Positions 1,119-30,008 are shown, counted from the first letter of the stretch. The stretch: 32,000 nt of DNA from Promethearchaeota archaeon (GCA_016933055.1 JAFGBS010000009.1:300001-332000), one strand, 5' to 3'. Notes: a model not told the origin generated them from the letters alone. A program made the numbers and translations.

Positions 1119-2039
1119 TTATTTTTTCTCTTTTCTCTTACTTGTATATCCAAGATCATCTAACACTTCCAGCATAGCTTCGTCATCAAAATCTTCGTAT
1201 TCATCTGCTGCAAATTGGTTAAAATTTAGACCATCCGGTACTGGGGGCTCCTCTTCAGAGCTAGTCACTTTTGTTGTGCCTATTTCTAGTGCTTCCACAT
1301 CATCCAATGGAATAGGAGGGACCTCGTTTTCATAAATTGGGAAATCTTGGTCTTCAATTCGAAAATGATAAGAGGAATGCGTAGAAGATGTTTCGGAAGC
1401 TTCTGGTTCAATATCTTGTCCTATCATATAATCTTCACTAATTGATACGATTCCTTTTGTGGAATCTTGATTGGTCGAAGATGGCACCTCATCTCCCTCC
1501 CATTCATCCAAGAAACTAAGCACATCTTGCATAGCGACAATATCATCACTCGCAGACACATCAGATTCAAACATTTGTGCTGCTTTTTCATCCATTTTCT
1601 CTTTTTTTACTTTTTCAGCTTCTAATTCAGCTCGAAGTTCTTCGGTGACTTTTCCTCCTGCAAGAATATAAGAAAATTTCTTACAACGGATTCGTAATAA
1701 CTCAAGATAATATCCTATACGTGCCAGATCGGTTAAACCCGCAAAAGTGAGATAATTACTGTCGATATGCATCAATATTGCATATCCTTCTTTACCTCGA
1801 ATCAGGATCTCCTTGAGATCACCATGATGGAGGTTTTGAACGAAATTAAGACCCACATCAATTAAGGCTGCAGAAGATGCCGCTAGTGGATCCACATCGA
1901 TATGATGAGATTTACTTGTTGCGATTTTCATGCCATTACGAGATAATATGGTTAGATTTTGCAGATCGCTTGTGCTTTCGATTCTAGCCAGTTCATTCAT
2001 AAGATTACTTCGAATTTCATCGTTCACATCTGTCGACAT
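1119..2039 (-). CDS. Roadblock/LC7 domain protein with long acidic C-terminal extension
   Basis: N-terminal ~125 aa has the roadblock pattern (ILSRNGMKIA..., LAASSAALIDVG, LKEILIRGKEGYAILMHI, IGYYLELLR), followed by a D/E-rich low-complexity tail. Confidence 0.85.
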   Translation of the reverse strand: MSTDVNDEIRSNLMNELARIESTSDLQNLTILSRNGMKIATSKSHHIDVDPLAASSAALIDVGLNFVQNLHHGDLKEILIRGKEGYAILMHIDSNYLTFAGLTDLARIGYYLELLRIRCKKFSYILAGGKVTEELRAELEAEKVKKEKMDEKAAQMFESDVSASDDIVAMQDVLSFLDEWEGDEVPSSTNQDSTKGIVSISEDYMIGQDIEPEASETSSTHSSYHFRIEDQDFPIYENEVPPIPLDDVEALEIGTTKVTSSEEEPPVPDGLNFNQFAADEYEDFDDEAMLEVLDDLGYTSKRKEKK

Positions 2040-2142: not shown

Positions 2143-2493
2143 ATGAGTGAAGATTCATCAGTCTCATATAAGGATTTTAAGAAATTGGATATACGAGTGG
2201 GATTAATAGTTGAAGCAGAAGATCTTGAAAAATCTGATCACTTATTACGTCTAAAGGTGGATATTGGTGAAAAAAAACCACGTCTGATCATCGCGGGATT
2301 GAAAGGATATTACACTCCCCGACAATTAAAAAACAAGAAAGTAATAGTACTTGCTAACCTCCAGCCTCGTAAAATGATGGGTTTGGAGAGTCAAGGAATG
2401 CTCCTTGCTGCCGATGTGGATGAAAAACCATTTCTCTTGAAATTTCACAAGGATGATGTCGATAAGATACCACCAGGGACACCGATTTCTTAA
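2143..2493 (+). CDS. Stand-alone OB-fold tRNA-binding protein (Trbp111/CsaA/MetRS C-terminal domain family)
   Basis: DFKKLDIRVG..., SDHLLRLKVDIGE, IIAGL, VIVLANLQPRKMMGLESQGMLLAA are hallmark motifs of the family. Confidence 0.92.
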   Translation: MSEDSSVSYKDFKKLDIRVGLIVEAEDLEKSDHLLRLKVDIGEKKPRLIIAGLKGYYTPRQLKNKKVIVLANLQPRKMMGLESQGMLLAADVDEKPFLLKFHKDDVDKIPPGTPIS

Positions 2494-2554
2494 ACTTCAT
2501 GATTTATCTTTTAGAAACCCCTTTATATACACTAGACTACCATTATTGGTTTTC

Positions 2555-3685
2555 ATGGAGATAAACGTGAAAAAATCGAAAATACCAGTTCGGGAGTATA
2601 CTTGGTTAGAATTACTCAAGCAAGATTTTGTATACGGAATCCCACTTTTCTATAATGGAACCCCATCATCATGTGCATCTAAACATGATAAAAACTTATT
2701 ATATCGAGGGATTATCCATCGTTTTCCTTCCTTTTTACGATGGAAATTTGCATACCTTGGTGAGAGATCCCGTTGTACAAGCGGAGTTAGAATAGAATTT
2801 ACCACGGATGCAAGCGCAATTAAATTACTAATAAAAACTAAGTATATGAAGCATCGAGAAAATTTTAGTAATATGGCACAAGCTGCTATGGACATCCTCG
2901 TTGATGGAAGATTTTGGGCTCTCTACTATCCAAGATGGAAAAATCTGGAAAAAATTTACCTCCCTGATGATGGCATGGTTCATAGAATATCCCTAGTTTT
3001 TCCTAATTACGCGAGCATAAAACTAGAAAAAATTATTCTTTTCAATTTGACAGAATTTGTACACCGTTCTCCAGAATATTTACTAAATAATCGTCCTATT
3101 ATCCACTATGGATCTTCTATTACTCAAGGAGGGTGTAGCAGCAGACCCGCACTAGCTTTCCCCCATCTTTTAAGTGAGACCTTTTGCGTCAATCACATAA
3201 ATCTTGGAATATCGGGAAACGCGAGAGGGGAACCTGAAATCGCTGATTATGTTGCCAATTTCTCTAATGCTATTCTTTTCATACTAGAATGGGGTGCAAA
3301 TTTACTGGATTTAAAATGGGACGATTTATTAGAACAGCGATATGAAAAATTTTGGAGAACAATTCACAATTCTAATCCTAATACACCCATATTATTTGTA
3401 GGATTACAGAACTTCTCATATGATATATGTGGGATGCTTGAAATCCGTATGAATATTCAAAAAAAACGAGAATTCATCCAAAAACAAGCATTAGCAGCAT
3501 GTAAAGAAGTAAATAAAAACGGTTTAAAATTATTTGATTACATTGATGGTACTACGATAATCAATTCATCTCGCCTTGATCTGACTATAGAAGGTATCCA
3601 TCCCAATGATAAAGGACATCGAGCATATGCAGAATCAATGAAATGCAAAATTATTAATCTTCTAGGTAATCACATAACTGCTTAA
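2555..3685 (+). CDS. SGNH/GDSL-like hydrolase
   Basis: Block I YGSSITQG, block II NLGISGN, block III EWGAN, block V EGIHPND. Start moved from 2453 to ATG 2555 to avoid a 41-nt overlap with the upstream gene. Confidence 0.82.
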   Translation: MEINVKKSKIPVREYTWLELLKQDFVYGIPLFYNGTPSSCASKHDKNLLYRGIIHRFPSFLRWKFAYLGERSRCTSGVRIEFTTDASAIKLLIKTKYMKHRENFSNMAQAAMDILVDGRFWALYYPRWKNLEKIYLPDDGMVHRISLVFPNYASIKLEKIILFNLTEFVHRSPEYLLNNRPIIHYGSSITQGGCSSRPALAFPHLLSETFCVNHINLGISGNARGEPEIADYVANFSNAILFILEWGANLLDLKWDDLLEQRYEKFWRTIHNSNPNTPILFVGLQNFSYDICGMLEIRMNIQKKREFIQKQALAACKEVNKNGLKLFDYIDGTTIINSSRLDLTIEGIHPNDKGHRAYAESMKCKIINLLGNHITA

Positions 3686-4899
3686 TTCAGTAGACTTTGG
3701 AATATCTCACTTATGGATTTTACCTCTCCAGGAGGATCATTCCATTTATGCAAGTTCAAATTGATACCATCTAATCGAATTGCTGTCCCGTTTGCTTCAA
3801 TTCCCGGGATGGAATATGGAATAGTGACACTTGCCTTACTACTAAAGGAGGATTTGAAATTATCGAATAGAATCACTTTTTTTTCGGGAAAATTTATTTG
3901 AGGAGGATTGAATTCATCTCGCAAATATTCTCCCCCAAAAATGATGGCTAAATCTGCTGGATCTTGGCTCTTTGGAGATATGGATGCAATTTCTTCGCCA
4001 AACGTCATAAATAATGCAGAAGTCAACCCAAAATCATTACTCATAGATGGTAATGCTAACAGTGAAAATCTTCCCTTAACATAAGTGTTCAATTTTTCCA
4101 TCAGCAGATTCAAATCTGTAATGCTGATGTGATCTTGGATTGGTGTATTACAAATAATTATGCCATATTCTGTAGCTTGTAGAAAAGTTTTCAATTCTCG
4201 TAAATTATCTTTTGAGAGATTTCCGATTGAAATTTCATCCAAGCTTTTTCCTTCTAACAAATGGATTAGCCCAGTTACTAATTGGGAACTGGATTGAGTT
4301 GAATTATCAATAAGAATATCTTTTAATCGAGTGAGATCCGATTCTTGCTTTTGGATCAGAATAAATTTCTTCATTTCTTTTCCTGATAAGCGGAACATAC
4401 CTCGACTGAATAAGAGTTTTCCAAATAGTTTAGGATGCGAGTGGGTAGGATCTACATTCCAAAATATAAACACATCTGCATTATTAATTCCCTGTCCAAT
4501 TCCTGTTAAACTGGGACTTAGTAATACATCATTGTTCTCTGAAATTTTGTCAATTTGAATCGTTTTTTTCTCTTCATATAATTTTCGAGCCACATTAAGG
4601 ACTTGCAATTGATCTTGATAGGAAATGGCTCCTAAACCGTAAAATTTTATAGAGGAAGCTTTCAGTAATTCCTCTTTAAGATTAGAAACCACCTCTTCGT
4701 GACTCAGAAGAATTTCTAATCCCGATTGTTTTTGTACTGCTTGCTGTAATCGGCTTTCTGACAGATAATTCTTAATAAAACCATTTCCACGAAAGCAAGA
4801 ATTTATAGTATTTTCCACAACACCGTCTTTAGTTAGTTTGATATATACATCATCACAAAGTAAAGCGCATCCATAACATTGAATTTTCTTGGTTCTCAT
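3682..4899 (-). CDS. fwdB: Formylmethanofuran dehydrogenase subunit B homolog, apparently catalytically degenerate
   Basis: N-terminal CxxCxxxCDD...C cluster motif, NNADVFIFWNVDPTHSHP (cf. NRAD..YWG.NP...HP), C-terminal PGIEANGTAIRLDG (cf. G.EA.GTAYRMDG); adjacent to fwdF/fwdG-like genes. No Cys where the CHG metal-ligand motif is expected. Confidence 0.8.
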   Translation of the reverse strand: MRTKKIQCYGCALLCDDVYIKLTKDGVVENTINSCFRGNGFIKNYLSESRLQQAVQKQSGLEILLSHEEVVSNLKEELLKASSIKFYGLGAISYQDQLQVLNVARKLYEEKKTIQIDKISENNDVLLSPSLTGIGQGINNADVFIFWNVDPTHSHPKLFGKLLFSRGMFRLSGKEMKKFILIQKQESDLTRLKDILIDNSTQSSSQLVTGLIHLLEGKSLDEISIGNLSKDNLRELKTFLQATEYGIIICNTPIQDHISITDLNLLMEKLNTYVKGRFSLLALPSMSNDFGLTSALFMTFGEEIASISPKSQDPADLAIIFGGEYLRDEFNPPQINFPEKKVILFDNFKSSFSSKASVTIPYSIPGIEANGTAIRLDGINLNLHKWNDPPGEVKSISEIFQSLLN

Positions 4900-4909
4900 T
4901 ATACTCTAC

Positions 4910-5395
4910 TTAAAAAATTTTGATAGCCTCTTGGGGACAATAACTTTCGCAAATAGAACAATTTCGAGCTTCTGCATCTCCTTCTTCCAATCGTCTACAA
5001 TGATCTAACTTCACAAGTTTTGCTTTACCATCATAAATCTGAAAGATTAGGTGAGTTTCTAAGGGATACTTTGGACATTTTCCGCTCATCACATTATCAC
5101 TATATCGAGCTTCAACGGGACATGCAAGGATGCATACACTGCAACCGTCGCATTTTTCCTCATCAATTTCGATATGAGTTTCATGGTCTCCCAGTACTGG
5201 AGCAAGGTAATCTTCTAATTCCTGTTTTTGCTGTATAAATTTAGGTTCTAATAAATAGGGACATTCCTCAATTTTGGCATTACCTTTCGCAAGATCTACA
5301 GCGAATGCCATACAACTGGATCTCCCGCATTCTTTGCAATTCGTTTTTGGAGTTAATTGATATACTTTCATTACCGATATCGAGCCCATTTTCAT
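4910..5395 (-). CDS. Fe-S protein: N-terminal (Fe-S)-binding domain (CdhE/AcsC N-terminal type) fused to a 2x[4Fe-4S] ferredoxin, FwdG/FwdH-like
   Basis: TPKTNCKECGRSSCMAFA...CP, then CDGCSVCILACP and C(x12)CSICESYCP; lies between fwdF and the fwdB-like gene. Confidence 0.78.
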   Translation of the reverse strand: MKMGSISVMKVYQLTPKTNCKECGRSSCMAFAVDLAKGNAKIEECPYLLEPKFIQQKQELEDYLAPVLGDHETHIEIDEEKCDGCSVCILACPVEARYSDNVMSGKCPKYPLETHLIFQIYDGKAKLVKLDHCRRLEEGDAEARNCSICESYCPQEAIKIF

Positions 5396-5399
5396 TCAC

Positions 5400-6509
5400 T
5401 TACTCACTGTGTATTTGTTGTTTTTTTAGATACTTCCGTAATTTGTCCTTTTTTTTATGATGGATGAAAATTCGAACGTTTGCTTTATCAAAATTATCTT
5501 TCATTTTCTGAATAACTGGTTCGTTTTTGGTTCTTATTTCAGCGTAAGTTTCTATAGAAAATGGGATTTCTGGAGTGATTTTATCATAGTCAAAATCGAT
5601 TTCTCCATCATCAGGTTGTATTATAACGAATTCCTCTTCCCGCTGTAAATTTTCCAATAATTCCTCTCGTGAAAGAGTTAAATCATTGAATTGCTTCTTC
5701 CAACGAGACATCCATGGTTTGTTCTTAGATTGTTCAGGTATTATTAAATCTACAGAAAATCTCCTCACAATAATGATTTCTTCTGGACAGGCATTCTCGC
5801 AAGCCCCACAATACATGCAAGTTTCCTCATTGCATGCGATTTTTCCATATTTTACTACCTCTTCAGCAGTTTGAGGAATAAAAAATGATTCAGTAGGGCA
5901 AATATTCACACATGCTTTACATCCATTTGGGTCACATTTGTATAGCTGTTCCTTTAATATGACTACTTCCCCCTCGAACGGACTGATAAATGTCATGGAT
6001 TGCGTGGGACAGTTATTCACAACCTGAATTAACTCTTTTGCATGATGACGACCTCGCTCTATATTGACAGGATCTCGAATTTCACTGCATTTTTTGCACA
6101 TTTCATTTTTTTCGTCCTTTTTACAAGTCGACTTATCATACACCCACATCTGTCGTAAAAGTGGGAAATCAACATTATGGATGGGTTGTCCGAGCTCGTC
6201 AGCTATTTCATAAACAGAATTGATGCAAACACTCACGCACATAAAACAGAAGCTACATTTATCAGTATCAATTAGTACGGCGGGCATATCTTCAATGAGT
6301 TTTTGAGCAATATCAGGTACAGGTCCCATTTCAATTGCACGTTCAGGACAGACTACATAACACAAACTACAACCTACACATTTATCCAGATCATAAATCA
6401 GGTATTTTTTATGGTCCATAAACTTCCAGCGTTCAATAATCAGATTTTTATTAACATCCATATCTTTTTCGACTTTTCGATTTTCCAGACTTTCTGAACG
6501 CTCCGTCAT
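5400..6509 (-). CDS. fwdF: Polyferredoxin, FwdF-like
   Basis: CVGCSLCYVVCP, CSFCFMCVSVC, CDPNGCKACVNICP, CMYCGACENACP; MGPV.DIAQ..I and FEGEVVI segments typical of FwdF. Start moved to ATG 6509, which has GAGGAG just upstream. Confidence 0.8.
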   Translation of the reverse strand: MTERSESLENRKVEKDMDVNKNLIIERWKFMDHKKYLIYDLDKCVGCSLCYVVCPERAIEMGPVPDIAQKLIEDMPAVLIDTDKCSFCFMCVSVCINSVYEIADELGQPIHNVDFPLLRQMWVYDKSTCKKDEKNEMCKKCSEIRDPVNIERGRHHAKELIQVVNNCPTQSMTFISPFEGEVVILKEQLYKCDPNGCKACVNICPTESFFIPQTAEEVVKYGKIACNEETCMYCGACENACPEEIIIVRRFSVDLIIPEQSKNKPWMSRWKKQFNDLTLSREELLENLQREEEFVIIQPDDGEIDFDYDKITPEIPFSIETYAEIRTKNEPVIQKMKDNFDKANVRIFIHHKKKDKLRKYLKKQQIHSE

Positions 6510-6610
6510 TGCTTTCTCCTCGTGCAATCCAAAAAAATGAAATTTTTTACAGTTATAAGGATATTCCAAACCTATTTTAGAATTTTAAAAAAGTTTCAAG
6601 AAACATGTAT

Positions 6611-7651
6611 TTATATTTTTAATACAATTTTCCCGAAATGATTTCCTGAATCCAGATATTTTTCTGCTTCTTTAGCTTCCGATAATGGAAACTCCTTTCC
6701 AATGATAGGTTTCAATTTTCCCTCGAACACGAGATTCATGACTTCTCGGAATTCTCTTTGATTACTCATAGTACTACCCAAGATTTCTAATTGATTCCAA
6801 AAAACCATATTTAAGTTGATTTTAGCTATTGGTCCACTGGTTGCACCACATGTAACTAATCTTCCTCCTGGTTTGAGCATCCGCAAACTGGTGGGAAAAG
6901 TCGCTGCACCCACACTATCAACTACAATATCGCACCCTTGTCTGTTCGTAATCTCTTTAAATACGTATTTGGGGTAATCAGGATCTTCATTATAATTGAT
7001 CACATAATCTGCACCCGATTCTCTGAGTTTTTGGGCTTTTTCCTCCGTACTTGTCGATACTATCGCGGTTGCTCCGAAAAAATTTGCAATTTGCAATGCA
7101 CAAAGAGATACTCCTCCACTCCCTCCCTGAATAAAGACAAAATCTCCTGTTTTAATCTGAGCTTTCGTAGTGAGCATTCTCCATGCAGTTAAAAAGCTTA
7201 AAGGTGCTGCAGCTGCTTCATCCAATGGAAAACCCTCTGGAATTTTTAACACATTGGCTGCTGGAACAGTGAATTGCTCTGCAAAAGTTCCACGTTCAAA
7301 TTCCCCTTTAATAGAAAATTTTGTACAAAAATTATGATTTCCCGATAGACAAATATCACATTTTCCGCAACTAGTTCCAGGATTTATAGTAACCATATCC
7401 CCTACATTTATTGGGATATTTTTCACCTCTGAACCTAATTCAACAACCTCTCCACATCCATCACTACCAAGAACATGGGGGAATTCCAATTTTAACCCTA
7501 CCCATCCCGCAGTAACAAATATGTCCAAATGATTTAGTGCACAATAAGCCGTTTTCACTAACACTTCATCTGGTTTGCATCTTGGAGGCTCTAAATTTCC
7601 GAATTTTATCTCATCCAAAGTACCATGTTTTTCTATATAGACTGCTTTCAT
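6611..7651 (-). CDS. Medium-chain dehydrogenase/reductase (zinc-binding ADH-like / quinone oxidoreductase-like)
   Basis: ALNHLD, GSDGCG, structural-Zn motif CGKCDICxxxxxxxC, nucleotide-binding GGSGGV, LKPGGRLVTCGAT, HFGKIVL. Confidence 0.92.
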   Translation of the reverse strand: MKAVYIEKHGTLDEIKFGNLEPPRCKPDEVLVKTAYCALNHLDIFVTAGWVGLKLEFPHVLGSDGCGEVVELGSEVKNIPINVGDMVTINPGTSCGKCDICLSGNHNFCTKFSIKGEFERGTFAEQFTVPAANVLKIPEGFPLDEAAAAPLSFLTAWRMLTTKAQIKTGDFVFIQGGSGGVSLCALQIANFFGATAIVSTSTEEKAQKLRESGADYVINYNEDPDYPKYVFKEITNRQGCDIVVDSVGAATFPTSLRMLKPGGRLVTCGATSGPIAKINLNMVFWNQLEILGSTMSNQREFREVMNLVFEGKLKPIIGKEFPLSEAKEAEKYLDSGNHFGKIVLKI

Positions 7652-7726
7652 ACATAGTGATTCTAAAAACCGTAAAATAAAGCTTCTTTTTTGAGAATTA
7701 AAAAGTTATAGGGAATTTTAACTTGT

Positions 7727-8209
7727 TCAATCTTGTTTTTTTTGCTCTATTCTATTAATATCATATTGAAAAACGACACGATCGACAAACCACAATTTAA
7801 ATAAAACTGAAATTGTTGAACAAAAAACGTAAGCCCATTTCAAATCACTTCCAGATTTCACTCCCCAAGGCAAAAAAGCAATAACTAATGATGGGATAAA
7901 GGCCAGAAGTGCAAAGATGTTACAGAGCATGGTGTAATCAACTATCAACTTTCCCTTCATTTTTTGAATCCACCATTGTTCAGCCAGTACGCCCTTGGAA
8001 ATCCACCTGTCCATTTTTTTAGGCTTTCGGAAAATCATAGGGTTAATTATAGCCCAGATTATGATAATAACGAAGGGTATCCATGTATAAGGACCAAAGT
8101 TTACGAACCATAATGTTACTGCAAAAAATGGAGCAGTAGCAACTCTACTCCATCCACTCGCTGGATTTGCATGGCGTTGCCAGAAATCAAATTTTGCCAT
8201 ATTCTCCAT
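7727..8209 (-). CDS. Small membrane protein, DUF6653-like
   Basis: N-terminal WQRHANPxSxWSR motif, NPMIFRKP, W.SKGVLAEQWW and 4 hydrophobic segments; start is ATG 8209 or 8200. Confidence 0.6.
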   Translation of the reverse strand: MENMAKFDFWQRHANPASGWSRVATAPFFAVTLWFVNFGPYTWIPFVIIIIWAIINPMIFRKPKKMDRWISKGVLAEQWWIQKMKGKLIVDYTMLCNIFALLAFIPSLVIAFLPWGVKSGSDLKWAYVFCSTISVLFKLWFVDRVVFQYDINRIEQKKQD

Positions 8210-8297
8210 AAAAATGTCTACCTTTAAGAAATTATTGGCTCTCATAGATCCACTGAGGGAGAAAGAATTATTAGATGAAATTAAGATAACTAGAATA

Positions 8298-8954
8298 ATG
8301 CCTAGAATTGAATTTTACATTATTTCCAAGACTGGTCTAATGTTGCATAAGTTCTCCGTTAAAAAAACACAAGATGATAATAAGGATCAGCTCGTGTCGG
8401 GATTATTATCTGCAATTAATTCTTTTGCAGCTGATATTGGTTGGGCTAGTGGAGTTTCAATGATTCGTTCGGGATCGATTGAAGCACGGTACAGTCAAGG
8501 AGAGTTTGTATTTGGAATATTGATAGTAGATTATTATAAACCAGGAATTGCAGATTCTGAATCCGCATTGGATGCTTTTGCCAGCGATATCACAGAACGC
8601 TTTGAATCTGTTTATAAAAAAGAATTAGAAGAAGCAAAGCAGTCTAATCGTTATAACATAACTCTATTTCAAGATTTTGGGAAACAAATAGATGAGATAA
8701 TCCTTGAAAATAATGATCAAATTGCGGAAATCTATCAACAACAAATTTTAATACAATCTATATATGCTGACGTGCCCCAAGAGATAATATTACCTTTGTT
8801 ACATCGTTTGAAATCTGGAGAAAATATTCTGGATGAACTACCGGATTTAATTTTGGAGTATCCCATTATGTTAAAAGCAATAGAGAAAACTAACATGGAT
8901 TATGAGCCTGTATGGACGATTTTTAAGGTACCTCTATTGAAGAAAGAATCCTAA
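8298..8954 (+). CDS. Longin-like domain protein
   Basis: FYIISKTGLMLH...QLVSGLLSAINSFA...FGILIVD...ITERFESVY matches the longin beta-beta-alpha-beta-beta-beta-alpha-alpha pattern. Start at 8214 would leave only 4 bp to the divergent gene, so ATG 8298 is preferred. Confidence 0.6.
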   Translation: MPRIEFYIISKTGLMLHKFSVKKTQDDNKDQLVSGLLSAINSFAADIGWASGVSMIRSGSIEARYSQGEFVFGILIVDYYKPGIADSESALDAFASDITERFESVYKKELEEAKQSNRYNITLFQDFGKQIDEIILENNDQIAEIYQQQILIQSIYADVPQEIILPLLHRLKSGENILDELPDLILEYPIMLKAIEKTNMDYEPVWTIFKVPLLKKES

Positions 8955-9859
8955 AAATCAAAAAAGATATTCATTTCCTGAGAATCTTTATCATATAGAG
9001 TTTTAATAAATGAGATTTCATTAACAATACGCATTAGTGTTGCTTTAATCTCTTTTATTCGATTTCTTTGATTTATCATGGATCTAGTGATGTCTTTCTC
9101 ACTTACTCCCGCACGGGAACCTTTATATCTTAAATAAATATCTTCAAGAAATTTATTGACACTGATACCAGAATCCAAGGATTCAAACAATCGGTAGAAA
9201 AATGAAAAGATTATCTCTCGTTCTAATGGTTCATCCACAAAATTAGAAATTACTTCTTTAATTCGAGTGGTTATTTCTTTTTTTTCTGCAAAAAGATTTT
9301 CGCGATCTTGCTCAACACTTCTTAAATTTAACTCAATAGTACGTAATGCTCTTCCTAATTGGATCAAGGCTGCATTTTGTGCACGGCGTTCAGCCAATTC
9401 TATTGAATCCTCGGCATCCTTCTTAACACCGTAAATAGATACTTGAAGAGGATATTTCGATTTCTTTTTTTCTAAACGTTTGTATACATCTTGAGTAGCT
9501 TGAGAGACATTTTTCACCGAATAATTGAAATAGTTTAAAGAAAAATCAAGATTAAGGGATAGGCTAATTTCGGGATTTAAACAGTAGAAAACTTTCTTTT
9601 TATCTCGTTCATCTTTAGAATATGGAATGATTAATCCCACTTGCAATAAATTTTCAAGATGCTTTTTGATTGCAGGTTTACTAATTCCAAGGTCTTTAGA
9701 TAAATTCGTTGCTATACTAGGAGTCTTTGATAATTTCATTAGTATTTTCCTATCGATCTCATTTCCCAAGATATTCATCAATAACTCGATATTTATTGAA
9801 CCATCTTCTTGTATAATTTTTAATGGTTCATTATCCGTTTGTTCTATTTCTGTTCCCAC
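8951..9859 (-). CDS. ArsR-like winged-HTH transcriptional regulator with C-terminal coiled coil (Phr/HSR1-like)
   Basis: ILGNEIDRKILMKLS...LSKDLGISKPAIKKHLENLLQVGLI...KKKVFYCL, then a heptad-rich helix (LRTIELNLRSVEQDRENLFAEKKEITTRIKE); directly downstream of cdc48. Confidence 0.8.
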   Translation of the reverse strand: MGTEIEQTDNEPLKIIQEDGSINIELLMNILGNEIDRKILMKLSKTPSIATNLSKDLGISKPAIKKHLENLLQVGLIIPYSKDERDKKKVFYCLNPEISLSLNLDFSLNYFNYSVKNVSQATQDVYKRLEKKKSKYPLQVSIYGVKKDAEDSIELAERRAQNAALIQLGRALRTIELNLRSVEQDRENLFAEKKEITTRIKEVISNFVDEPLEREIIFSFFYRLFESLDSGISVNKFLEDIYLRYKGSRAGVSEKDITRSMINQRNRIKEIKATLMRIVNEISFIKTLYDKDSQEMNIFFDF

Positions 9860-9879
9860 TTTCCATCCCTAAATATGTG

Positions 9880-9894
9880 TAAATCTTTTGTTAA
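9880..9894 (-). promoter_or_regulatory. Putative operator box upstream of the HTH regulator
   Basis: taaatcttttgttaa matches taaacctttagttaa (12777-12791) at 13/15 positions and lies 20 bp upstream of the GTG start at 9859. Confidence 0.5.
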
Positions 9895-9901
9895 AAAAAA
9901 A
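9893..9901 (-). terminator. Oligo-T (T9) tract immediately after the cdc48 stop
   Basis: Nine A on the + strand abut the TAA at 9902-9904; archaeal intrinsic terminators are typically U-tracts. Confidence 0.4.
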
Positions 9902-12124
9902 TTAGGAAAACATTGGATTAGGCAATGCACCTTCTAGCTTCTGGTAGGTTTTATTGGTACGTTGTGCTTCCTTTTCTACCGATTTCATAGCTTCCTCAAA
10001 ATGCTTCATTTCAATTACTAATTCACTGACATTTTTGTCAGAATCTGCAAAATTCTTTATCATAATTCCTTCCCGAATTGCAAGAATTGTTGCTTCTTGG
10101 CATAGGGCTTCAATGTCTGCACCAGTTTTACCCTCCATTCGTTTAGCTAACTCTCGGTAAGATATTCCTTTAGCCACCGGCCTTTCTTTCATATGTATCT
10201 CGAAAATTTTTTCTCGTGTATCAAGGTCTGGTAATGGCACCTCGATATGTCGTCCAAATCTACCTGCACGTAATAATGCTGGATCGATAATATCTGGTCG
10301 ATTGGTCGCTGCTATGATCACCACATTATTTAAAGCTTCCAAGCCATCCATTTCTGTCAATAATTGGGAAATAACGCGCTCTGTAACCTGACTATCGGCT
10401 CTACCCCCCCGCACAGGAGCTATCGCATCAATTTCATCAAGAAATATAATACAAGGTGCTGCAGAACGTGCTTTTCGGAAAGTCTCACGCACGGCCTTTT
10501 CACTTTCTCCAACCCACTTGGATAGAAATTCAGGTCCTTTGACGGAAATGAAGTTAACTTCACTTTCATGCGCTAATGCTTTGGCTAATAAGGTTTTTCC
10601 TGTGCCGGGTAATCCCCATAATAATATACCTTTTGGAGGTCTGGCTCCCATATGTTTGTATATATTCGGATATTTCAATGGCCATTCTATGATTTCGCGA
10701 AGTAATTGCTTTGCTTCCTCTAACCCGCCAACATCGTCCCATGTTTCAGGGGGGGTCTGAATAAACACTTCACGTAATGCAGAGGGCTCTACTTCTGTTA
10801 AAGCTCCATCAAAATCAGCTTTTGTCACAGATAGTGATTCTAAAAGTTCCAGAGGGATTTCATCCTCTTCAAGTTTCAAATCGGGTAGGATTCTGCGCAA
10901 AGTTTTCATCGCAGCTTCTTTTCCGATCATTTGAAGATCTGCACCAACAAATCCATGTGTTTTTTGAGCATAATAATTTAGATCTACATCATCGGCTAAA
11001 GGCATACCTCGGGTATGAATTTGCAGAATTTCCAGTCGGCCTTTCTTATCCGGTACCCCAATTTCAATTTCTCGGTCAAATCTTCCCGGTCGTCGAAGTG
11101 CTGGGTCTAATGCATTCTGACGATTGGTTGCACCAATTACTACAACATTTCCTCGTGGATCTAAACCATCCATTAAGGCTAACAATTGTGCAACTACCCT
11201 TCTTTCAACATCACCTTGAGTCTCTCCTCGTTTTGGTGCTATAGAATCCAGCTCATCAATGAAAATAATACTAGGTGCTTTTTCTTGTGCTTCCTTAAAC
11301 ACATTTCGTAAATTCTCTTCCGATTGTCCATAAAATTTAGACATTATTTCGGGTCCTGATAAATTAATGAAATGTGCATTCGTTTCATGTGCTACAGCCT
11401 TCGCCAGTAAGGTTTTACCAGTTCCTGGGGGTCCATAAAGCAGAACTCCTTTTGGAGGTTCAATTCCTAAGCGGTTAAATAACTCCGGATGTCTTAAGGG
11501 AAGCTCAATCATTTCTCGCACCTTTTGGATCTCTTCAGTTAGACCACCAATATCATCATACATAACCCTCTTATCCATTTGAAGGTCTTCGGGGCGGATT
11601 ACTTTGTCTTCAATAATAATTTCGGTATCTCGGTTAATTTGTACAGCTTCCCCTCTCGGACGAAATCCAACGATCGCAAAATCAAGGTCATAGTTCATGA
11701 TATGAAACCTGAGTAAATCTCCGGGAGATACTACCCGATTTTCCAATACTTGAGCGAAATATTGAGTATTTTTTAATCGCATTGCTCGGTCTACCCATGC
11801 AAAAGTTACAGATTCGGCAGGTTTAACCGTAATTTTCCGTACATAGACGCGTTCATCTAGAGAAGCATTCAAATTCCGTCTAGTGCTTCCATCTATTCGG
11901 ATAACTGCTTTTCCTGCGTCATCTCGGAATCCTGGCCATACTAAACATGCTGTTTTTTTTCCCATCAGAGGATTTTCTAGTTGAATAACATCTCCCGATT
12001 TAATTTGATATGCTGCTGCTAAATCAGGATCTAACCGAGCGATGCCTCTCCCCACATCTTTGGATCGAGCATCGGCAACTCGTAATGAGAGTTTGTCCTT
12101 ATCCTTTTCATTGGTTTTACTCAT
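9902..12124 (-). CDS. cdc48: CDC48/VCP/p97 family AAA+ ATPase
   Basis: N-domain ([19 protein letters not shown]), D1 Walker A GPPGTGKT / Walker B IIFIDELD / [10 protein letters not shown]2 GLPGTGKT / IIFLDEID / LRAGRFGR. Confidence 0.97.
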
Positions 12125-12131
12125 TCTTTTT

Positions 12132-12722
12132 CTATTCCTTTACTATTTTTATTTGATATATGTTATTATTACCATCTATTACTGTTTTCGTCTTATCTAG
12201 ATTAAAGTCTATGTTAAAATCTACCTTATAAGCAGTATACTCATTTTCACCGATAATAGTCACTTTATTTCCAGATTGGGATAATATTATTTGGTCTTTT
12301 TCAACGTTTGGCAATTCAATGGTCAAGAGTGCGGAATTTTCGTCTCTTTCAACTTCAAAAAAAGTATCTTCATAGTTAACAATATCATTATCGGGATTTT
12401 CGTTGATGGATACATTCTTAGCGTCCAGTACAGGTAAATTTATGGTCGGATTATAATTTCTACGAATAATTGCATTGGTATCGAATTTCATTCCTTTAAC
12501 CATGTCAAGAAGTGTTTTATCATCAACTAGTTCTCCATTAATTCGTATTTCGGGTTTGTCCATTCCTGTTCCAAAGCGGTATGATACTGAATGATGATGC
12601 ATATTCGGATTTATATCACTCAAATTAGGCAAATTGGCGATATTTCCAAATAATCGTTCAATCATTTCATCTAAATCTTTAAAATCAAATGGATCAAAGC
12701 CATCAATATCATTATTTTTCAT
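12132..12722 (-). CDS. hsp20: Small heat-shock protein (archaeal Hsp20, divergent alpha-crystallin domain)
   Basis: Acidic/Phe-rich N-terminus ([16 protein letters not shown]), SVSYRFG...KPEIRING, C-terminal [25 protein letters not shown]...NNIYQIKI; 7 bp upstream of cdc48. Confidence 0.7.
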
Positions 12723-16545: not shown

Positions 16546-18186
16546 TTATATTAATATAAACAATAACGCGGCTGCAATTGCAATTAAAATTGTTACTCCC
16601 ATAAAAATCACACGAAAAGTCCAGTCGCGTGATTTCATTATTTTCTTAAACGGCTTTTTAAACGGTCCAAATTTTTCTTCACTAAGAGGAATTTCGTGAT
16701 AATGGGTAAAAGTTTCACTTTCTATCTGTAATTGATTGATTGGAACGCAGAAATAAAGGAAAAGCATGAAAATTAGTCCAATCGTTAAAATAGTAGTCCC
16801 AATCGTTTCTAGGATAAGAATAAAACGCGAGAAGTCGCCATACACATAAGCATAGATTGTTTGCATCACTGCGAGGTCCATAACCCACATTGCCGAGAGT
16901 ACTTCAAAAGGTTTCAATTTTCTCAAATGGGGAGTTAGGGATACCGATTTTGTTTTGAATGCAGCCACATGAATTTTTTTTCTGCCAAATTGCGCATTTA
17001 AGAAGAATTTTTTATCTGATTGATTATAATACACCCTTTGGGTCGTGTTAAAATCCGTGAATAATGCCATTATTATCAAACCAAGACCAAATACCATACC
17101 CCCAAACCAGAATAGGGCGCCATATATAATCTGGAATGCGTAAGAAACCAAAGATATCACAAGAATGGTCAATCCCATAATTAAACGAAAATATTTATGC
17201 TGTTTTTCTCGTGTGATTAGAATATCGTGTTCTTCTGAGTTCAAATCTCCGTAAGCGAAATCACCTCGACTGTCCATTTGCTTAGAAACACATTCCAAAA
17301 CACTCAAAATTTCTGTTCTGGCTGTAGCCTTCTGTGGATTAAACCACATTTCATAATATTTATCAGCTGACACCAATTCTAGATAATCTTGAGGATACAC
17401 GACTAGCAAGAATAAACAAATAAAATGAATAACGGCTGTTAATGTCATCATGATAGGAAATTCATGAGTTTCAGCACGCGGTTCATCAAACATCGGAACT
17501 CCATATTTCAACATTAAAAGAGCTGTAGGAACAAAATAAATGATCCATATAATACGGTGTCCGATATTCGTATTCTGATAACGCAATGCTTCTACGTCAG
17601 TTTTGGCAATTTCAGTTAATTTGGGAAATAATAGTCTCCGTTCATGTATATAGTAGATATTTTCACTTTGAGAAATATTTCCGGGATATATGGTAAGTAT
17701 ACTATATACCAGCATAGCGGCACCTATAATAAATGCGGGAAATCCTACCAACCAGAAAAATGACATATTCCCTAATGTTAAAGCAGTACCATGGTATTGC
17801 TCAACTGGAATGTCTTCAGGCGGTCCAAAATATGCTCCGAGGAAGAAATAATTTAAAATTCCGATAGAAATAAGCAAAATCGCTGCATAAAACCGTGTCC
17901 ATGGAATGGACACAAAACGAGTCTCTGCAATCACTTTTTCTCTATACTTGTCTGATGTTTTATACGTCCACACCCCTTCCGATAATTTTTTCGGCGAAAG
18001 AGAAAAAAACATTCCAATTAAGAGAGCTCCAAGAAGGAACACAAGTGCTGCGAAGAAATATTGAACCACTTGATATACAAAAATAACCATGAATACTGCT
18101 ACAGCAAGGAATACAATTCCTAGTAAAAGATAGGTATATCTCCTGCGCTGATTCTTCATACTGAACTGATTATAGGATTCACTCAT
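16546..18186 (-). CDS. Polytopic membrane protein of unknown function
   Basis: About 11-12 hydrophobic segments. Start moved to ATG 18186, which overlaps the upstream stop (TAATG) and has GGAGGG upstream. Confidence 0.75.
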   Translation of the reverse strand: MSESYNQFSMKNQRRRYTYLLLGIVFLAVAVFMVIFVYQVVQYFFAALVFLLGALLIGMFFSLSPKKLSEGVWTYKTSDKYREKVIAETRFVSIPWTRFYAAILLISIGILNYFFLGAYFGPPEDIPVEQYHGTALTLGNMSFFWLVGFPAFIIGAAMLVYSILTIYPGNISQSENIYYIHERRLLFPKLTEIAKTDVEALRYQNTNIGHRIIWIIYFVPTALLMLKYGVPMFDEPRAETHEFPIMMTLTAVIHFICLFLLVVYPQDYLELVSADKYYEMWFNPQKATARTEILSVLECVSKQMDSRGDFAYGDLNSEEHDILITREKQHKYFRLIMGLTILVISLVSYAFQIIYGALFWFGGMVFGLGLIIMALFTDFNTTQRVYYNQSDKKFFLNAQFGRKKIHVAAFKTKSVSLTPHLRKLKPFEVLSAMWVMDLAVMQTIYAYVYGDFSRFILILETIGTTILTIGLIFMLFLYFCVPINQLQIESETFTHYHEIPLSEEKFGPFKKPFKKIMKSRDWTFRVIFMGVTILIAIAAALLFILI

Positions 18187-19835
18187 TACAATCCCTCCAA
18201 ATACCCGAAGTATTTCAATATATAATATGGCATTGTGTAACTTATACCAATGCGCTCCCTTACAGCCCAAGATACAGCTCTACTATGACTCCAAACATCC
18301 GTTGGAGCATAAGGATTCGAATTCCATATGAAAGTATCAATACTTTTCATGGATACTGTTTTTGGCCTAAGATACCTATCATCTAACATTCCGTCCATTA
18401 GTTCCCCAGGTAACCATCGGAATAAAATTCCAATCGGGTTGGTGTCAAAGAAATTTTTCCATTTCTGTATTTTAGGGTCCAAAATCGTCCAAGTTCCCCC
18501 TAAATCTTGACGCAACACAGACTTATTAACGCCTCCATAACTATCGTTGTAGATTGGATATGCCGTAAACTGATGCAATTGATCAAGTGTATCCCATAAA
18601 ATCTCATCTAATTCAGCTTGAGAATATCTGGTACTGGGAGTAGAACGTAAGGCATTGAATGCAAGGAAAATCGAATTAACCTGAGCATTCCTCTGGTATC
18701 TATAGAGTTTAAACTCAGCCTCATAATTATTGATAAACCTATCGAGTTTTATAGGATCATCCTCAACAAGCGCGTAGCCCATAAGTAGGTTATTTCCAAA
18801 CCCATTTGCATAATATTCATCCACTGTGTTTGATTCTCCAATATGAGGGGAATGTGGTTGATACATTTCTCGTGTACAGTAATAATTATAGAGTTGCGCG
18901 TATCTTTGATTCTCTGGATATGCTATCAATGCCATTTTCATTAATATCATTTTCCACTCACCCGTTAAAGTGAACATATTCTCCAAATGTGCTCCACAAG
19001 GATTTCCATCACCATGAATCTCTTGATACATAGAATCTATGAACCCGTTTGCTATTTGACCGATGATCTTCTTGATAACATCTTGCACCCATGGGTCATC
19101 ACAGAGCTGTAAAGCAGCAGCTAATCCAAAAAAGTAACCACCCAGTTCATCTTTTGAAGTATACAGCCGAACCCGCCATTGACTATAATCTTCTCCTCCC
19201 ATGGCGGTTCCATCCGTGCCATTGAACATTTTATAATGGTCACCAAACATGTATGAATAATTTGCATCATTCACCAAGTCCGGCATTGCATAAAATCTAG
19301 CTAAAGTCTGTCCAGGAAACTGGGGACCTAAACCACCATTGGGAACAGCCATTAACAGCGATAGACCTGTGGTGAGTTTCTTAATCAATTCTAATGATAC
19401 CGCTCGTTCACCAGGTTCCGTTAAAGTCTGGTAACGGAAGCACTCGGTAGCAAGCGATGCTCCTGTATAGAGACCAGCGTTATCCGTCAGATCGTATTGA
19501 AAAATACCCGAAGGATCCACGGCATTATTATACAGCCAGCAATTAACCGATAAATTAATCGGGGTATGGTAATCTATCTGTCGAATTTGGTACGTATTTG
19601 CTAGATCATCCATTAGATCTAGATCTGCTGTAATATTTTCCATCGAGTTCCATGGATAATCCGGATCATACGGATTATAGAAATTTAATTCCCGATCAAA
19701 TGCGTGCGATGCAAGATCAGTGAATAAATAACCGATAAAACCTCCAAAAGCCCCAAACAAGACTAGCGGAATAAAGCAAACTATAGTTAATATTGTGTAT
19801 CTTAATTTGATGGTTTTTCGTTTGGTAATTTTCAC
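18186..19835 (-). CDS. Membrane-anchored or exported protein of unknown function, possibly an (alpha/alpha)-barrel enzyme
   Basis: GTG start with GGTGA upstream; basic N-terminus plus one hydrophobic helix; Tyr/Trp/Asp-rich helical body (DNAGLYTGASLATECFRY, LARFY, TSKDELGGYFFGL). Confidence 0.75.
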   Translation of the reverse strand: MKITKRKTIKLRYTILTIVCFIPLVLFGAFGGFIGYLFTDLASHAFDRELNFYNPYDPDYPWNSMENITADLDLMDDLANTYQIRQIDYHTPINLSVNCWLYNNAVDPSGIFQYDLTDNAGLYTGASLATECFRYQTLTEPGERAVSLELIKKLTTGLSLLMAVPNGGLGPQFPGQTLARFYAMPDLVNDANYSYMFGDHYKMFNGTDGTAMGGEDYSQWRVRLYTSKDELGGYFFGLAAALQLCDDPWVQDVIKKIIGQIANGFIDSMYQEIHGDGNPCGAHLENMFTLTGEWKMILMKMALIAYPENQRYAQLYNYYCTREMYQPHSPHIGESNTVDEYYANGFGNNLLMGYALVEDDPIKLDRFINNYEAEFKLYRYQRNAQVNSIFLAFNALRSTPSTRYSQAELDEILWDTLDQLHQFTAYPIYNDSYGGVNKSVLRQDLGGTWTILDPKIQKWKNFFDTNPIGILFRWLPGELMDGMLDDRYLRPKTVSMKSIDTFIWNSNPYAPTDVWSHSRAVSWAVRERIGISYTMPYYILKYFGYLEGL

Positions 19836-19984: not shown

Positions 19985-21091
19985 TTGAAAATATATATGG
20001 TAAATCAAGGTGTACTTGAGGAAAAACCCGAGCTTATTACGTATCCAATATTTAGTACAGGAGATGTTTATATCGTTGACACCTTTGATACAATTTGGAT
20101 TTGGATAGGTGAAAAGTGTTCGGTTGATGAAAAAGCAATAGCTGCCGCAGAAGCTCGAAGGATAGATGAGGAACGTGGCGGTTCTGCTAAAATTATTACG
20201 GTGGACCAGAATTTTGAAGCCCCCGAGTTTCTTACTTTATTAAATGGGTTAAAAATTGTTCACAAAAACCTCGCCCGAACTATGTTAAAAGATGTGTCTA
20301 CTGGAAGCTATGCAGGTCATGAAGAACATATCAATACATTATACAGAATTTCCTCTGAAGAATTCGAGGGCATAGATACTATGAAGTTCACACAATTACC
20401 GTGGGATATTTCATCATTAGATAGTGAGGATGCTTTCGTAGCAGATCTTGGCGATTACATTTGGATATGGCAAGGTCAAGATTGTAATATTAAGGAGAAA
20501 GTCAAAGCTCGCAGTTTTGCTACCCAATTTGATGCGGATCGAGCAGGTGTGCAACAAGTGAAAGTATTTGAAGAAGGAGATGATGAGGAATTTTTAGCGA
20601 TCTTTGAAGGAGAACTTCCAGGAAAACGTACTATAGGTCCAGATTTTAAACCCGAACAAATGGAACCCGAAGAACCGGAGATGACTTTTTCGGAAAAACC
20701 TAAACCCCGTCCATTACCATTACCTGGACAAACAATTGTATCTGAATCTGTTCCTAAACCAACGCCGTTAGAATCCAAACCTATGCCTATAGTTGCTCCA
20801 GAACCAAAATATACTCCAACTCCTGAACCAATTCTTGAATCAGATTCCACAGAAAACCCACCATCCTTCATGGAAACAGAAGATAATGAATCAAAACCAA
20901 TTATAAGCTCTGACGGAATTTTGGTGCAAAGAGATGGGGGAAGACTTCGATGTCCAAAATGTGGTAATATAAAAGTTGTAATGATTCGAGAAGTGCAAGA
21001 CAAGGAGCACATCTTAAACGATTATCCCTTAATATATGCTAAGAAATATATTTGTGGTGTTTGCGGTTCCCACTGGCGAGTGGAAGAATAA
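19985..21091 (+). CDS. Two-domain gelsolin-family protein with Pro-rich linker and C-terminal zinc ribbon
   Basis: Two gelsolin repeats (FSTGDVYIVD..IWIWIG....DEK..AA and LDSEDAFVAD..IWIWQG....KEK), Pro/Glu-rich segment, CPKC...CGVC; TTG start with GAGGT upstream. Confidence 0.9.
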   Translation: MKIYMVNQGVLEEKPELITYPIFSTGDVYIVDTFDTIWIWIGEKCSVDEKAIAAAEARRIDEERGGSAKIITVDQNFEAPEFLTLLNGLKIVHKNLARTMLKDVSTGSYAGHEEHINTLYRISSEEFEGIDTMKFTQLPWDISSLDSEDAFVADLGDYIWIWQGQDCNIKEKVKARSFATQFDADRAGVQQVKVFEEGDDEEFLAIFEGELPGKRTIGPDFKPEQMEPEEPEMTFSEKPKPRPLPLPGQTIVSESVPKPTPLESKPMPIVAPEPKYTPTPEPILESDSTENPPSFMETEDNESKPIISSDGILVQRDGGRLRCPKCGNIKVVMIREVQDKEHILNDYPLIYAKKYICGVCGSHWRVEE

Positions 21092-28013: not shown

Positions 28014-30008
28014 CTACTTTTCTACTTTATCGGAGTCATATAATTCTGAACCCGGAACTAAATAAACATTCCCACAGACGGGACAACTGTTATGTTTCTC
28101 TAACCACCATGCTGAACATAAATAATGGGATAATCTACCGCAAAATTCGCATTTAATATAATCCTCCGAAACAACATCTACCTTTTTATGACATATCACG
28201 CAAATTTTACTCTTAATATCCCCCTTTTTCTCCAACCGTTTTTCTAATAATGCTTTATAGGAGATCTTTGTATTAGTGTAGACATGTTTCATTCGTTCAA
28301 GGTCCTTGAGTTTTTTATCAATGTATTGCATTTGATTCCGAATTTGTTCATCTGTCAAAGTATCGGGATTTAAAATATTCGGTGAGAGCATAAGAGATAG
28401 TTTTCTCTCATCCGATCCAAATTCCGAAGAAGGTTCCATGAATCCTTCCTCTTTTTTCATGAGGATCTGGAATTTCTCGACAAGGGTAGTCAATAATTTA
28501 GTAATAATAAATTCAGCACGATGTTTTTCTGCAAAATATGTCTCTTCCCATCTTTGAATGGCATCATAAATGTTCACATTTTCTTTTTGGTATTTTTGAA
28601 ACACATGTTGGGCTTTAACATAAATTTTGTCAAATTCCTGTTGAAAATTTTTAATAATTTCGGATATCTGGTTGATCTGAGGGATCTCCTCTTCGACTAG
28701 TTTTAATGTTGTCTTTTGATAAGATGATATTTTATCATTCAAGAGCTGAAGGACAGAATCTAGTTCTTTCTCCACTGTTGCCCGAGTATCATGTTCATAC
28801 ACAATATCGGAATAATTTTCAAATTCTTCTTGTTTTCGGAGAATTTCCGCGATTAGATCTTCTACTATCTCCTCAAATTTTGCGGTAACATTTTCATAAG
28901 GTTTGAGAAAGGGTTTAAGGGATTTTAACCATGCACCAATAATATTGAGTTTTTTGAGCAAGGGAGAAATCCGTGCATTATATTTTTCTTCAAGTTTATC
29001 AGCAGGTAGATTTAATTTCGACAATTCTGCTTGAATATCATTCTCACATAGTAATGCAATTTTGGATAAGATCTTCATCGGTTCGTCTATTATGTCTTCG
29101 TATTTAGTATTTTGGAATAATTCAGTAACAATTTCAAAATACGCATTAGATATTAACCGTTTGAGGGCAGCCTTGGAATCTTTTACGATTATTTTATGTG
29201 GCACTTCCTGAATTATTCCAACTCGAAAATAAACCCATAATAACTCAGAAACAATTTGATTAAATTCTTCCGTGAGATCCTGCTTCTTTAGTATTTTTAG
29301 GATATTGTAGGTAATCTTGGTAACATCAGAAGATTTTTGAAGCTCTTGAAGACTTAATTCAGATTTTTGAATTGTGGGAAAAATATATTGTACCAACGAG
29401 TTTCTGGATGCATTTATTGTATATTTAGTCGCTTTTTCTAGGTTGATGGTATACCATTTTTGTGCAGAAGATCCTAAACTAGAAATAAATTCAACCGGTT
29501 CATAATAAATAAAACTATCAAGTTCTTCTAACTTAATACTCGAAGGAATTACGTCCTTTCTGTCTTTCAGAACAGATGATTGATGATCTTTAATAGCAAT
29601 TGCCGTTTTTTGATATCCTTCCAAGAGTTTTTGCATGATAATTTGAAAATTATAGGAAAGTTGGTTCTTCTTCGTTATTTTTCGTGCAGATCGTATTAAT
29701 GTATTGAAAGCATTGAATTCCAAAAAACGGGTAATTAAATTTTTCGTTAGTATTGCAGAAAGATAACTAGGAGGTTCAGTCTTAACAACCTCGCCAATAT
29801 TACTGAACAAATCAAATTCTTTAGTAAAATTCTCTAGTAAAGAAACTGATATAGATTGTGAATAATCTATTAATTCTTGTACTAATTCGGGTTGACTTTT
29901 TGGATCTAGAGAATTACTTGTCTTTTTCTTGGAGTTAATGAGATTTTCCAATTTAAATTTTAATTGATCAAATGCTTCTTTTAGGGATGACGAGTCGGTT
30001 AAATCCAT
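28014..30008 (-). CDS. Large helical/coiled-coil protein with C-terminal RING-type (C4HC3) zinc finger
   Basis: About 600 aa of K/E/L-rich helical sequence, then CVIC-x14-CEFC-x4-HxxC..WWL....CPVC. Confidence 0.8.
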   Translation of the reverse strand: MDLTDSSSLKEAFDQLKFKLENLINSKKKTSNSLDPKSQPELVQELIDYSQSISVSLLENFTKEFDLFSNIGEVVKTEPPSYLSAILTKNLITRFLEFNAFNTLIRSARKITKKNQLSYNFQIIMQKLLEGYQKTAIAIKDHQSSVLKDRKDVIPSSIKLEELDSFIYYEPVEFISSLGSSAQKWYTINLEKATKYTINASRNSLVQYIFPTIQKSELSLQELQKSSDVTKITYNILKILKKQDLTEEFNQIVSELLWVYFRVGIIQEVPHKIIVKDSKAALKRLISNAYFEIVTELFQNTKYEDIIDEPMKILSKIALLCENDIQAELSKLNLPADKLEEKYNARISPLLKKLNIIGAWLKSLKPFLKPYENVTAKFEEIVEDLIAEILRKQEEFENYSDIVYEHDTRATVEKELDSVLQLLNDKISSYQKTTLKLVEEEIPQINQISEIIKNFQQEFDKIYVKAQHVFQKYQKENVNIYDAIQRWEETYFAEKHRAEFIITKLLTTLVEKFQILMKKEEGFMEPSSEFGSDERKLSLMLSPNILNPDTLTDEQIRNQMQYIDKKLKDLERMKHVYTNTKISYKALLEKRLEKKGDIKSKICVICHKKVDVVSEDYIKCEFCGRLSHYLCSAWWLEKHNSCPVCGNVYLVPGSELYDSDKVEK

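Follow-up and report, generated by a model that had tools for sequence, protein, structure and literature searches.

What can a catalytic subunit still do for a cell once its metal site is gone? The question is raised by a 32,000-nucleotide stretch of the genome of a Promethearchaeota archaeon (G000:C17:300001-332000, hereafter the window, to whose full length all coordinates refer; the assembly is 3.76 Mb long, with about 35% G+C). Three consecutive genes of this window encode a polyferredoxin (polyFd), a second Fe-S protein (FeSfd) and a paralog of FwdB, the catalytic subunit of formylmethanofuran dehydrogenase, which we designate FwdB* (Table 1). FwdB* is devoid of the ligand and catalytic residues of FwdB, with no conserved substitute in their place. 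On balance, we think it probable that FwdB* is a non-catalytic descendant of the FwdB of a second isoenzyme (FwdB2), very probably free of pterin, and that the trio supplies some other redox enzyme with an electron-relay or docking arm.

The preliminary description had recognized a FwdB homolog in the locus, the product of 3682-4899, and profile, PDB and fold matches agree on this homology. The sequence matches FwdB of M. wolfeii (PDB 5t5i_B, E 2.7e-23), and the AlphaFold2 model (pLDDT 88.5) has the FwdB fold: its best Foldseek match is FwdB 5t5m_B (E 5e-27, TM score 0.79), with FwdB matches spanning TM scores of 0.79-0.80. Further fold matches are to NuoG (Foldseek ranks 8-12), ElpA (8rvu_D) and FhcB (6s6y), and the NuoG profile TIGR01973 also matches the sequence (1.1e-13). 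With TIGR03129, which describes the FwdB/FmdB catalytic subunit, FwdB* scores 142.7 bits, below the cut-off of 327.8, whereas the genuine copy of the same genome reaches 592 bits. Compared with FwdB/FmdB (5T5I/5T5M chain B, 8RJA_B, 7BKB_H; TIGR03129), FwdB* has in common the fold, the four-Cys motif, the F.RG.FR..G.E loop and a C-terminal G-I/V-E...R.D motif, as well as its place after ferredoxin and polyferredoxin genes, in the order of the FwdF-FwdG-FwdB path (PMC11656701). It differs in falling under the profile cut-off, in having neither the Cys/Sec-His nor the G/R-G-H motif, in a 16-residue deletion, in 23 of 57 conserved columns, and in the lack of any linked FwdD, FwdA or FwdC.

The four N-terminal Fe-S cysteines pointed out earlier (C8, C11, C15 and C35) are present, align with the [4Fe-4S] ligands of genuine FwdB and are invariant within the FwdB* family; the only other Cys is C250. 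Both catalytic signatures, C-H/Q-G and G/R-G-H-x-N, are absent from FwdB* in alignments with genuine FwdB, as first described. The loop that had been quoted, DKISENNDVLLSPSLTGIGQGINNAD, corresponds to residues 117-142, and LPSMSN (residues 283-288) lies where FwdB has G/R-G-H-x-N, the Asn alone being kept. Selenocysteine is rightly excluded as an explanation: the frame is open, contains no in-frame UGA and is colinear with 24 orthologs. The active-site loop is indeed shorter, by a net 2 residues in the subclade of the window rather than by the 7 first given, and it varies in both sequence and length across the family; every member of the family alignment has in addition lost about 16 residues behind the former GH motif. 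At the catalytic-Cys column, orthologs carry K, S, N, G, F, L or C. Six of ten deeper-branching members have, by ungapped counting, a Cys one residue after this column (N-C-[GSA]-N), which is not conserved: close relatives of the Cys-bearing members are without it, indicating repeated loss.

The changes extend beyond the two signatures. Conservation of at least 80% across 51 Cys-bearing FwdB/FwdB2 sequences defines 57 alignment columns, of which 34 are kept in FwdB* and 23 are changed. The changed columns include, in the numbering of the FwdB of the same genome, the ligand Cys, G155, R164K, D191Q, D212S, G259, G261, G295, H296, D350E, P351Y and T378K, whereas those kept comprise the Fe-S ligands, the F.RG.FR..G.E loop and the C-terminal G-I/V-E...R.D motif. 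Asp/Gly-rich positions after beta-strands would be expected in the regions that bind the dinucleotide in enzymes carrying Mo/W-bisPGD (bis-pyranopterin guanine dinucleotide), and the change of several Asp/Gly columns in FwdB* would fit a loss of these regions. Elsewhere, segments of catalytic FwdB are replaced by family-specific ones, THSHPK, GGEYLRDE and FDNFKS, which are near-invariant among FwdB* proteins, and about 60 columns are invariant across the family.

The family is small and confined to one group of archaea. A search of 5.8 billion proteins returned 23 relatives of FwdB*, with 39-62% identity, all from metagenome-assembled genomes (MAGs) of Promethearchaeota or Lokiarchaeota, the next matches being genuine FwdBs at 24-26%. 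A profile search of 1.84 billion cluster representatives gave three full-length FwdB* clusters at 50% identity, after which the score falls from 617 to 199 bits. In some sources, the family is annotated as formylmethanofuran dehydrogenase subunit B. The open reading frame (ORF) is intact and full-length in all copies (about 24 sequences). The ratio of nonsynonymous to synonymous substitution (dN/dS, or omega) is 0.086 for the closest pair, L041-L043 (dS 1.07), which gives the sole usable ratio; dS is saturated (>2 or not computable) in most pairs, and other pairs gave 0.13-0.16. Relaxed selection, which the preliminary description had named as a finding that would speak against repurposing, is not seen: omega lies at 0.086-0.16 and the ORF is intact down to 39% identity. 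FwdB* is under purifying selection and is not a decaying gene.

The Fe-S cysteines of FwdB* are conserved together with both ferredoxin partners. Gene contexts of orthologs were compared at six loci (L041-L046), two of them short (L043 and L044, incomplete). The order polyFd-FeSfd-FwdB* recurs in a congeneric MAG (L041), in a more distant MAG whose locus holds the trio only (L042), and in two metagenome contigs (L045 and L046). The trio is conserved in these four independent loci, the flanks of which differ. Where flanks can be read beyond the closest relatives (L044 and L046), they carry an Arf-like GTPase or an MFS transporter instead of the GDSL hydrolase of the window. An Arf-family GTPase comes after the trio in L046. 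The internal gaps of the trio are 4 bp (polyFd/FeSfd) and 10 bp (FeSfd/FwdB*). No FwdD lies beside the trio wherever the flanks are readable, that is, in the window, L041, L045 and L046, as well as downstream of FwdB* in L044. In closer comparisons, FeSfd is 87% identical, polyFd 82% and FwdB* 61%, which makes FwdB* the fastest-evolving member of the trio.

The middle gene had been taken for FwdG-like. Its product instead begins with a PF04060 'FeS' domain (Pfam, 5.9e-14), as found in RnfB and at the N-terminus of CdhE/AcsC, followed by a two-cluster ferredoxin (Fer4); twelve invariant Cys imply three clusters. The combination of PF04060 and Fer4 is shared with RnfB, whose N-terminal membrane anchor region is missing from FeSfd: the match to TIGR01944 (rnfB) begins at profile position 37 and scores 43.7 bits, under the cut-off of 68.7. 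Since FeSfd accompanies Cys-bearing FwdBs in other Asgard families, either in FwdD-FwdA-FeSfd-FwdB operons or, in two families, facing HdrA-polyferredoxin genes, it appears to be the Asgard equivalent of FwdG. PolyFd has 20 invariant Cys and hence five [4Fe-4S] clusters, as against 6-8 in FwdF, and it scores 115.7 bits with the FwdF profile NF042909, below the cut-off of 375; it presumably works like FwdF. Its most likely start is ATG 6509 and not TTG 6569, because its orthologs are 365-368 aa long.

A search of the genome for an intact fwdB and for fwdACD, proposed in the preliminary description, found a full canonical set on other contigs. As had been stated, fwdA, fwdC and fwdD are not adjacent to the gene of FwdB*: none lies in the window, and the genes are on contigs C11 and C27. 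The latter carries FwdD-FwdB-FmdE, with the FwdB that scores 592 bits; one FwdD was found in the genome, adjoining this genuine FwdB. Contig C11 (134969-142715; L065:5969-13715, minus strand) carries FwdA-HdrC-HdrB-HdrA-MvhD-ferredoxin (82 aa)-polyferredoxin (235 aa)-FwdC, a gene set for a methanogen-style Hdr-Fwd supercomplex, here in an Asgard archaeon. All the genomes found with FwdB* (3/3) also carry genuine FwdB, and FwdB2 is absent from them.

The origin of FwdB* can be traced in a sister family of the same order, in which 68 of 69 genomes were matched by the FwdB* query. The best match there is a 431-449-aa paralog, FwdB2, with 26-29% identity, which keeps C-Q/H-G (mostly C-Q-G rather than C-H-G) and G-G-H-Y-N and scores 327.9 bits with TIGR03129, at the cut-off. 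It is encoded in an operon FeSfd-FwdB2-FwdD-FwdA2, without FwdC (L028:7482-11383 on G204:C19, and likewise on G147:C1 and G040:C3). In FwdA2, the last metal-ligand Asp is apparently replaced (TTDHP to SLNFP). FeSfd is single-copy per genome, and its ortholog in the sister family (48% identity) is the gene adjoining FwdB2; polyFd has a full-length ortholog there as well (42-44% identity), beside hsp20-cdc48-regulator genes as in the window. FwdB* and FwdB2 are complementary, genomes holding one or the other alongside genuine FwdB. The two have the FeSfd partner in common and share motifs such as LFSRG and TTIG, but FwdB2 keeps the catalytic motifs and is followed by FwdD and FwdA2, and FwdB* is only 26-29% identical to it though the partners remain 42-48% identical.

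Because the same FeSfd stands in the sister-family operon with a Cys-bearing FwdB2, FwdD and FwdA2, FwdB* looks like a stripped descendant of the FwdB2 isoenzyme. The A subunit was seemingly stripped too, since a FwdA2-like protein of the same genome, FwdA* (Table 1), has lost its metal ligands: HxH has become RxH, the carboxylated Lys is Ser and later His residues are missing, so that the binuclear-metal ligands are apparently gone. The congeneric genome has FwdA* at 51% identity, and a search of genome G301 at E 1e-20 gave no match; possibly, FwdA* is another subunit of that former isoenzyme that has been stripped. In the simplest history, an ancestral second Fwd isoenzyme would have lost its metal site, FwdD and FwdA, and the FeSfd-FwdB* pair would later have become co-operonic with polyFd.

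In a maximum-likelihood tree, the FwdB* proteins cluster with full support, and a long stem (1.23 substitutions per site) leads to them. The tree places this clade in a group with FwdB2 and other ligand-less Asgard FwdB-like proteins (P0034-P0041; Sigyn-, Loki- and Promethearchaeota), where its joining of the other ligand-less long branches may be an artefact of long-branch attraction. Many of the 150 best FwdB-like cluster representatives (P0034-P0043 and many of P0051-P0175) have kept the four Fe-S cysteines with the catalytic Cys gone, the nearest coming from Sigyn-, Loki-, Prometh- and Helarchaeota MAGs, and such ligand-less FwdB paralogs seem widespread. A search of 301 Asgard genomes with one of them, P0041, gave no match at E 1e-50.

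How might a FwdB without its metal site be put to use? FwdB* keeps the FwdB fold and its [4Fe-4S] cluster, and the tight operon would co-express it with FeSfd and polyFd, which would contribute three and five clusters, respectively. Taken together, the invariant Cys (20 in polyFd, 12 in FeSfd and 4 in FwdB*) correspond to about nine [4Fe-4S] clusters, and the trio would form a chain of these clusters laid out like FwdF-FwdG-FwdB, with an end protein that has no CO2-reducing site. In the solved enzyme, electrons pass from FwdF to FwdG to FwdB, a path that the gene order of the trio mirrors (PMC11656701). The module would act as a 'wire' that ends in a structural piece and serves another redox enzyme, and we propose the Hdr-type bifurcating machinery of the cell as its most plausible partner. 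A pterin-free Fe-S wire or scaffold had been suggested in the preliminary description, and several converging lines of sequence evidence support it, namely the loss of the ligands, the change in 23 of the 57 conserved columns, the absence of a linked FwdD, and the retention of the Fe-S cysteines and ferredoxins. Going further, and into what we hold to be possible rather than likely, the trio may constitute, perhaps with FwdA*, a 'pseudo-Fwd' complex in which CO2 reduction has been abandoned. Low-potential electrons from Hdr-type bifurcation would pass through it to some other acceptor, or the rebuilt pterin cleft (THSHPK, GGEYLRDE, FDNFKS) would bind a new ligand, and FwdB* would be one branch of an undescribed Asgard radiation of ligand-less FwdB paralogs.

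Several observations weigh against a relay arm. No Hdr, CODH/ACS or other redox enzyme is encoded in the window or in the variable flanks of the orthologous loci. The Cys one position off the catalytic column persists in some deep FwdB* members, as do, in FwdB* at large, motifs of catalytic FwdB (the C-terminal IPGIE..G.A.R.DG, N288, G291 and D346), for which a pterin-contact and a structural role are both possible. Finally, FwdB* evolves about 4 times faster than genuine FwdB (in genome pairs where genuine FwdB has 91% and 67% identity, FwdB* has 61% and 44%), which fits relaxed constraint, and also a role of low importance. This rate, the 61% identity of FwdB* against 82-87% for its partners and the repeated loss of the nearby Cys could point to a slowly decaying remnant that has no function itself and hitchhikes with the ferredoxin genes; such a remnant is highly improbable given an ORF intact and full-length in about 24 sequences from three 50%-identity clusters, omega values of 0.086-0.16 and about 60 invariant columns. 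We give as little credence to a FwdB* that is still a Mo/W (or other metal) enzyme, using a Ser, Asp or nearby Cys as ligand and borrowing the single FwdD. Ser and Asp ligands are usable in enzymes of the DMSO-reductase family (PMC10100899, table), phmmer places S119 of FwdB* opposite the catalytic Cys, and a C-terminal motif common to catalytic FwdBs is retained, but the residue at the would-be ligand position varies (K, S, N, G, C, F, L), the dinucleotide-type Asp/Gly motifs are lost, no FwdD is linked, and the fourfold faster evolution also argues otherwise.

Alternatively, the near-invariant segments THSHPK, GGEYLRDE and FDNFKS could make up a site for a new ligand or substrate where the pterin cleft used to be, supplied by the chain of nine clusters. 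They have persisted despite divergence to 39% identity, more than decay would leave, and the long stem of 1.23 substitutions per site was followed by purifying selection; a new function nevertheless seems rather unlikely, as it comes with no conserved candidate chemistry, cofactor gene or substrate-related neighbour, and the invariant residues could equally fill an empty cleft or form subunit contacts. Another use of an inactive FwdB homolog is already known: FhcB of Methylorubrum extorquens (PDB 6S6Y) is without Mo/W-bisPGD and acts as a scaffold (PMC10100899). FwdB* might likewise be purely structural in a complex of the formylmethanofuran hydrolase/formyltransferase type, with FwdA and FwdC or with the FwdA* of contig C2, and both the fold match to 6s6y and the presence in the genome of this one spare FwdA-like gene, a relative of FwdA2 in the operon of FwdB2, would agree with that. 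Genes for FwdA, FwdC and Ftr are, however, not linked to the trio in any locus, and no FhcA (FwdA-like), FhcC (FwdC-like) or FhcD (Ftr-like), the proteins with which FhcB is encoded, is found adjacent in the window, L041, L042, L044, L045 or L046. FhcB (6s6y_B, 361 aa) must also be without the N-terminal Fe-S domain, because its alignment begins only at residue 62 of the FwdB-like query, whereas FwdB* retains this domain and has eight further clusters encoded alongside. As for FwdA*, its replaced HxH and Lys make hydrolysis unlikely, and its absence from G301 at E 1e-20 is a further argument against such a complex. An Fhc-like subunit, the alternative offered in the preliminary description, is therefore not supported, and we regard it as quite unlikely; the relay or docking arm remains our preferred reading of the trio.

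FwdB* would be a lineage-restricted addition to the known cofactor-less subunits with the MopB fold. In respiratory complex I, the C-terminal domain of NuoG/Nqo3 has this fold and no pterin, and is kept as a structural or Fe-S-bearing part of an electron-transfer arm; unlike FwdB*, it is fused to ferredoxin and hydrogenase-type domains and resides in a membrane complex, and its gene stands among unrelated neighbours. ElpA of Methanothermobacter marburgensis (PDB 8RVU chain D), a member of the formate-dehydrogenase family without molybdopterin, has been shown experimentally to be part of the electron-donor arm of Elp-Hdr (PMC12350162). It is a truncated FdhA without the MopB domain, and its gene is accompanied by those for ElpB, a homolog of FdhB that binds F420, and ElpC, or MvhD (PMC12350162). 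In contrast to the FdhA-derived, truncated ElpA, FwdB* is FwdB-derived, full-length and encoded with ferredoxins only, no FdhB-like or MvhD gene adjoining it.

The coordinates of the features discussed are collected in Table 1. The region 5' of the polyFd gene is likely the promoter of the three-gene operon. At the other end, a convergent GDSL/SGNH hydrolase gene (2453-3685, plus strand) closes with a 4-bp overlap (3682-3685) with the FwdB* gene at the stop codon of the latter, which leaves no room for a terminator in between. Directly upstream of the trio and on the same strand lies a gene for a zinc-type MDR dehydrogenase (6611-7651, minus strand; PIG3/acryloyl-CoA-reductase-like, under all equivalog cut-offs). 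This alcohol dehydrogenase/MDR gene was considered as a partner of the trio and rejected, as it is upstream solely in the closest relatives (L041 and L045) and not in L046. The polyFd gene keeps its place beside hsp20, cdc48 and winged helix-turn-helix regulator genes throughout the order (5400-12722 in the window; L061-L064), with or without FeSfd-FwdB* downstream. Further away, the window holds eukaryote-signature genes typical of Asgard archaea, namely those for a Roadblock/LC7-domain protein (1119-2039, minus strand) and a gelsolin-repeat protein (19985-21091, plus strand), and three large ORFs (574, 549 and 664 aa; 16546-19835 and 28014-30008, both minus strand) with no Pfam match at E 1e-5.

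Table 1. Coordinates of the FwdB* trio, its upstream region and the unlinked FwdA-like gene; positions are those of the window unless a contig is named.
Feature	Coordinates	Strand	Description
FwdB*	3682..4899	-	405-aa FwdB paralog; [4Fe-4S] motif kept; W/Mo-ligating Cys-His and G/R-G-H lost; about 16 residues after G/R-G-H gone
FeSfd	4910..5395	-	161-aa soluble Fe-S protein of RnfB/CdhE type; N-terminal PF04060 'FeS' domain and 2x[4Fe-4S] ferredoxin domain with long insert
polyFd	5400..6509	-	369-aa polyferredoxin; multiple Fer4; Cys-free, K/E-rich C-terminal extension of about 110 aa
Intergenic region	6510..6610	-	A/T-rich, 101 bp, 5' of the polyFd gene
FwdA*	G000:C2:94022-95485 (L036:1468-2991)	+	507-aa FwdA-like amidohydrolase; best match in sister-family genomes is FwdA2 beside FwdB2

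FwdB* offers a natural example of how the catalytic subunit of a CO2-fixing complex may be turned into an Fe-S relay with its input ferredoxins nearly unchanged. The catalytic form, FwdB2, is still extant in the sister family, which makes the transition unusually traceable, and the case parallels that of the recently solved ElpA in methanogens. Asgard archaea are read as hydrogen-dependent organisms of the Wood-Ljungdahl type largely from gene lists, where the presence of 'fwdB' is taken to indicate CO2 reduction. FwdB* is almost certainly unable to reduce CO2, and metabolic reconstructions should therefore not count it.

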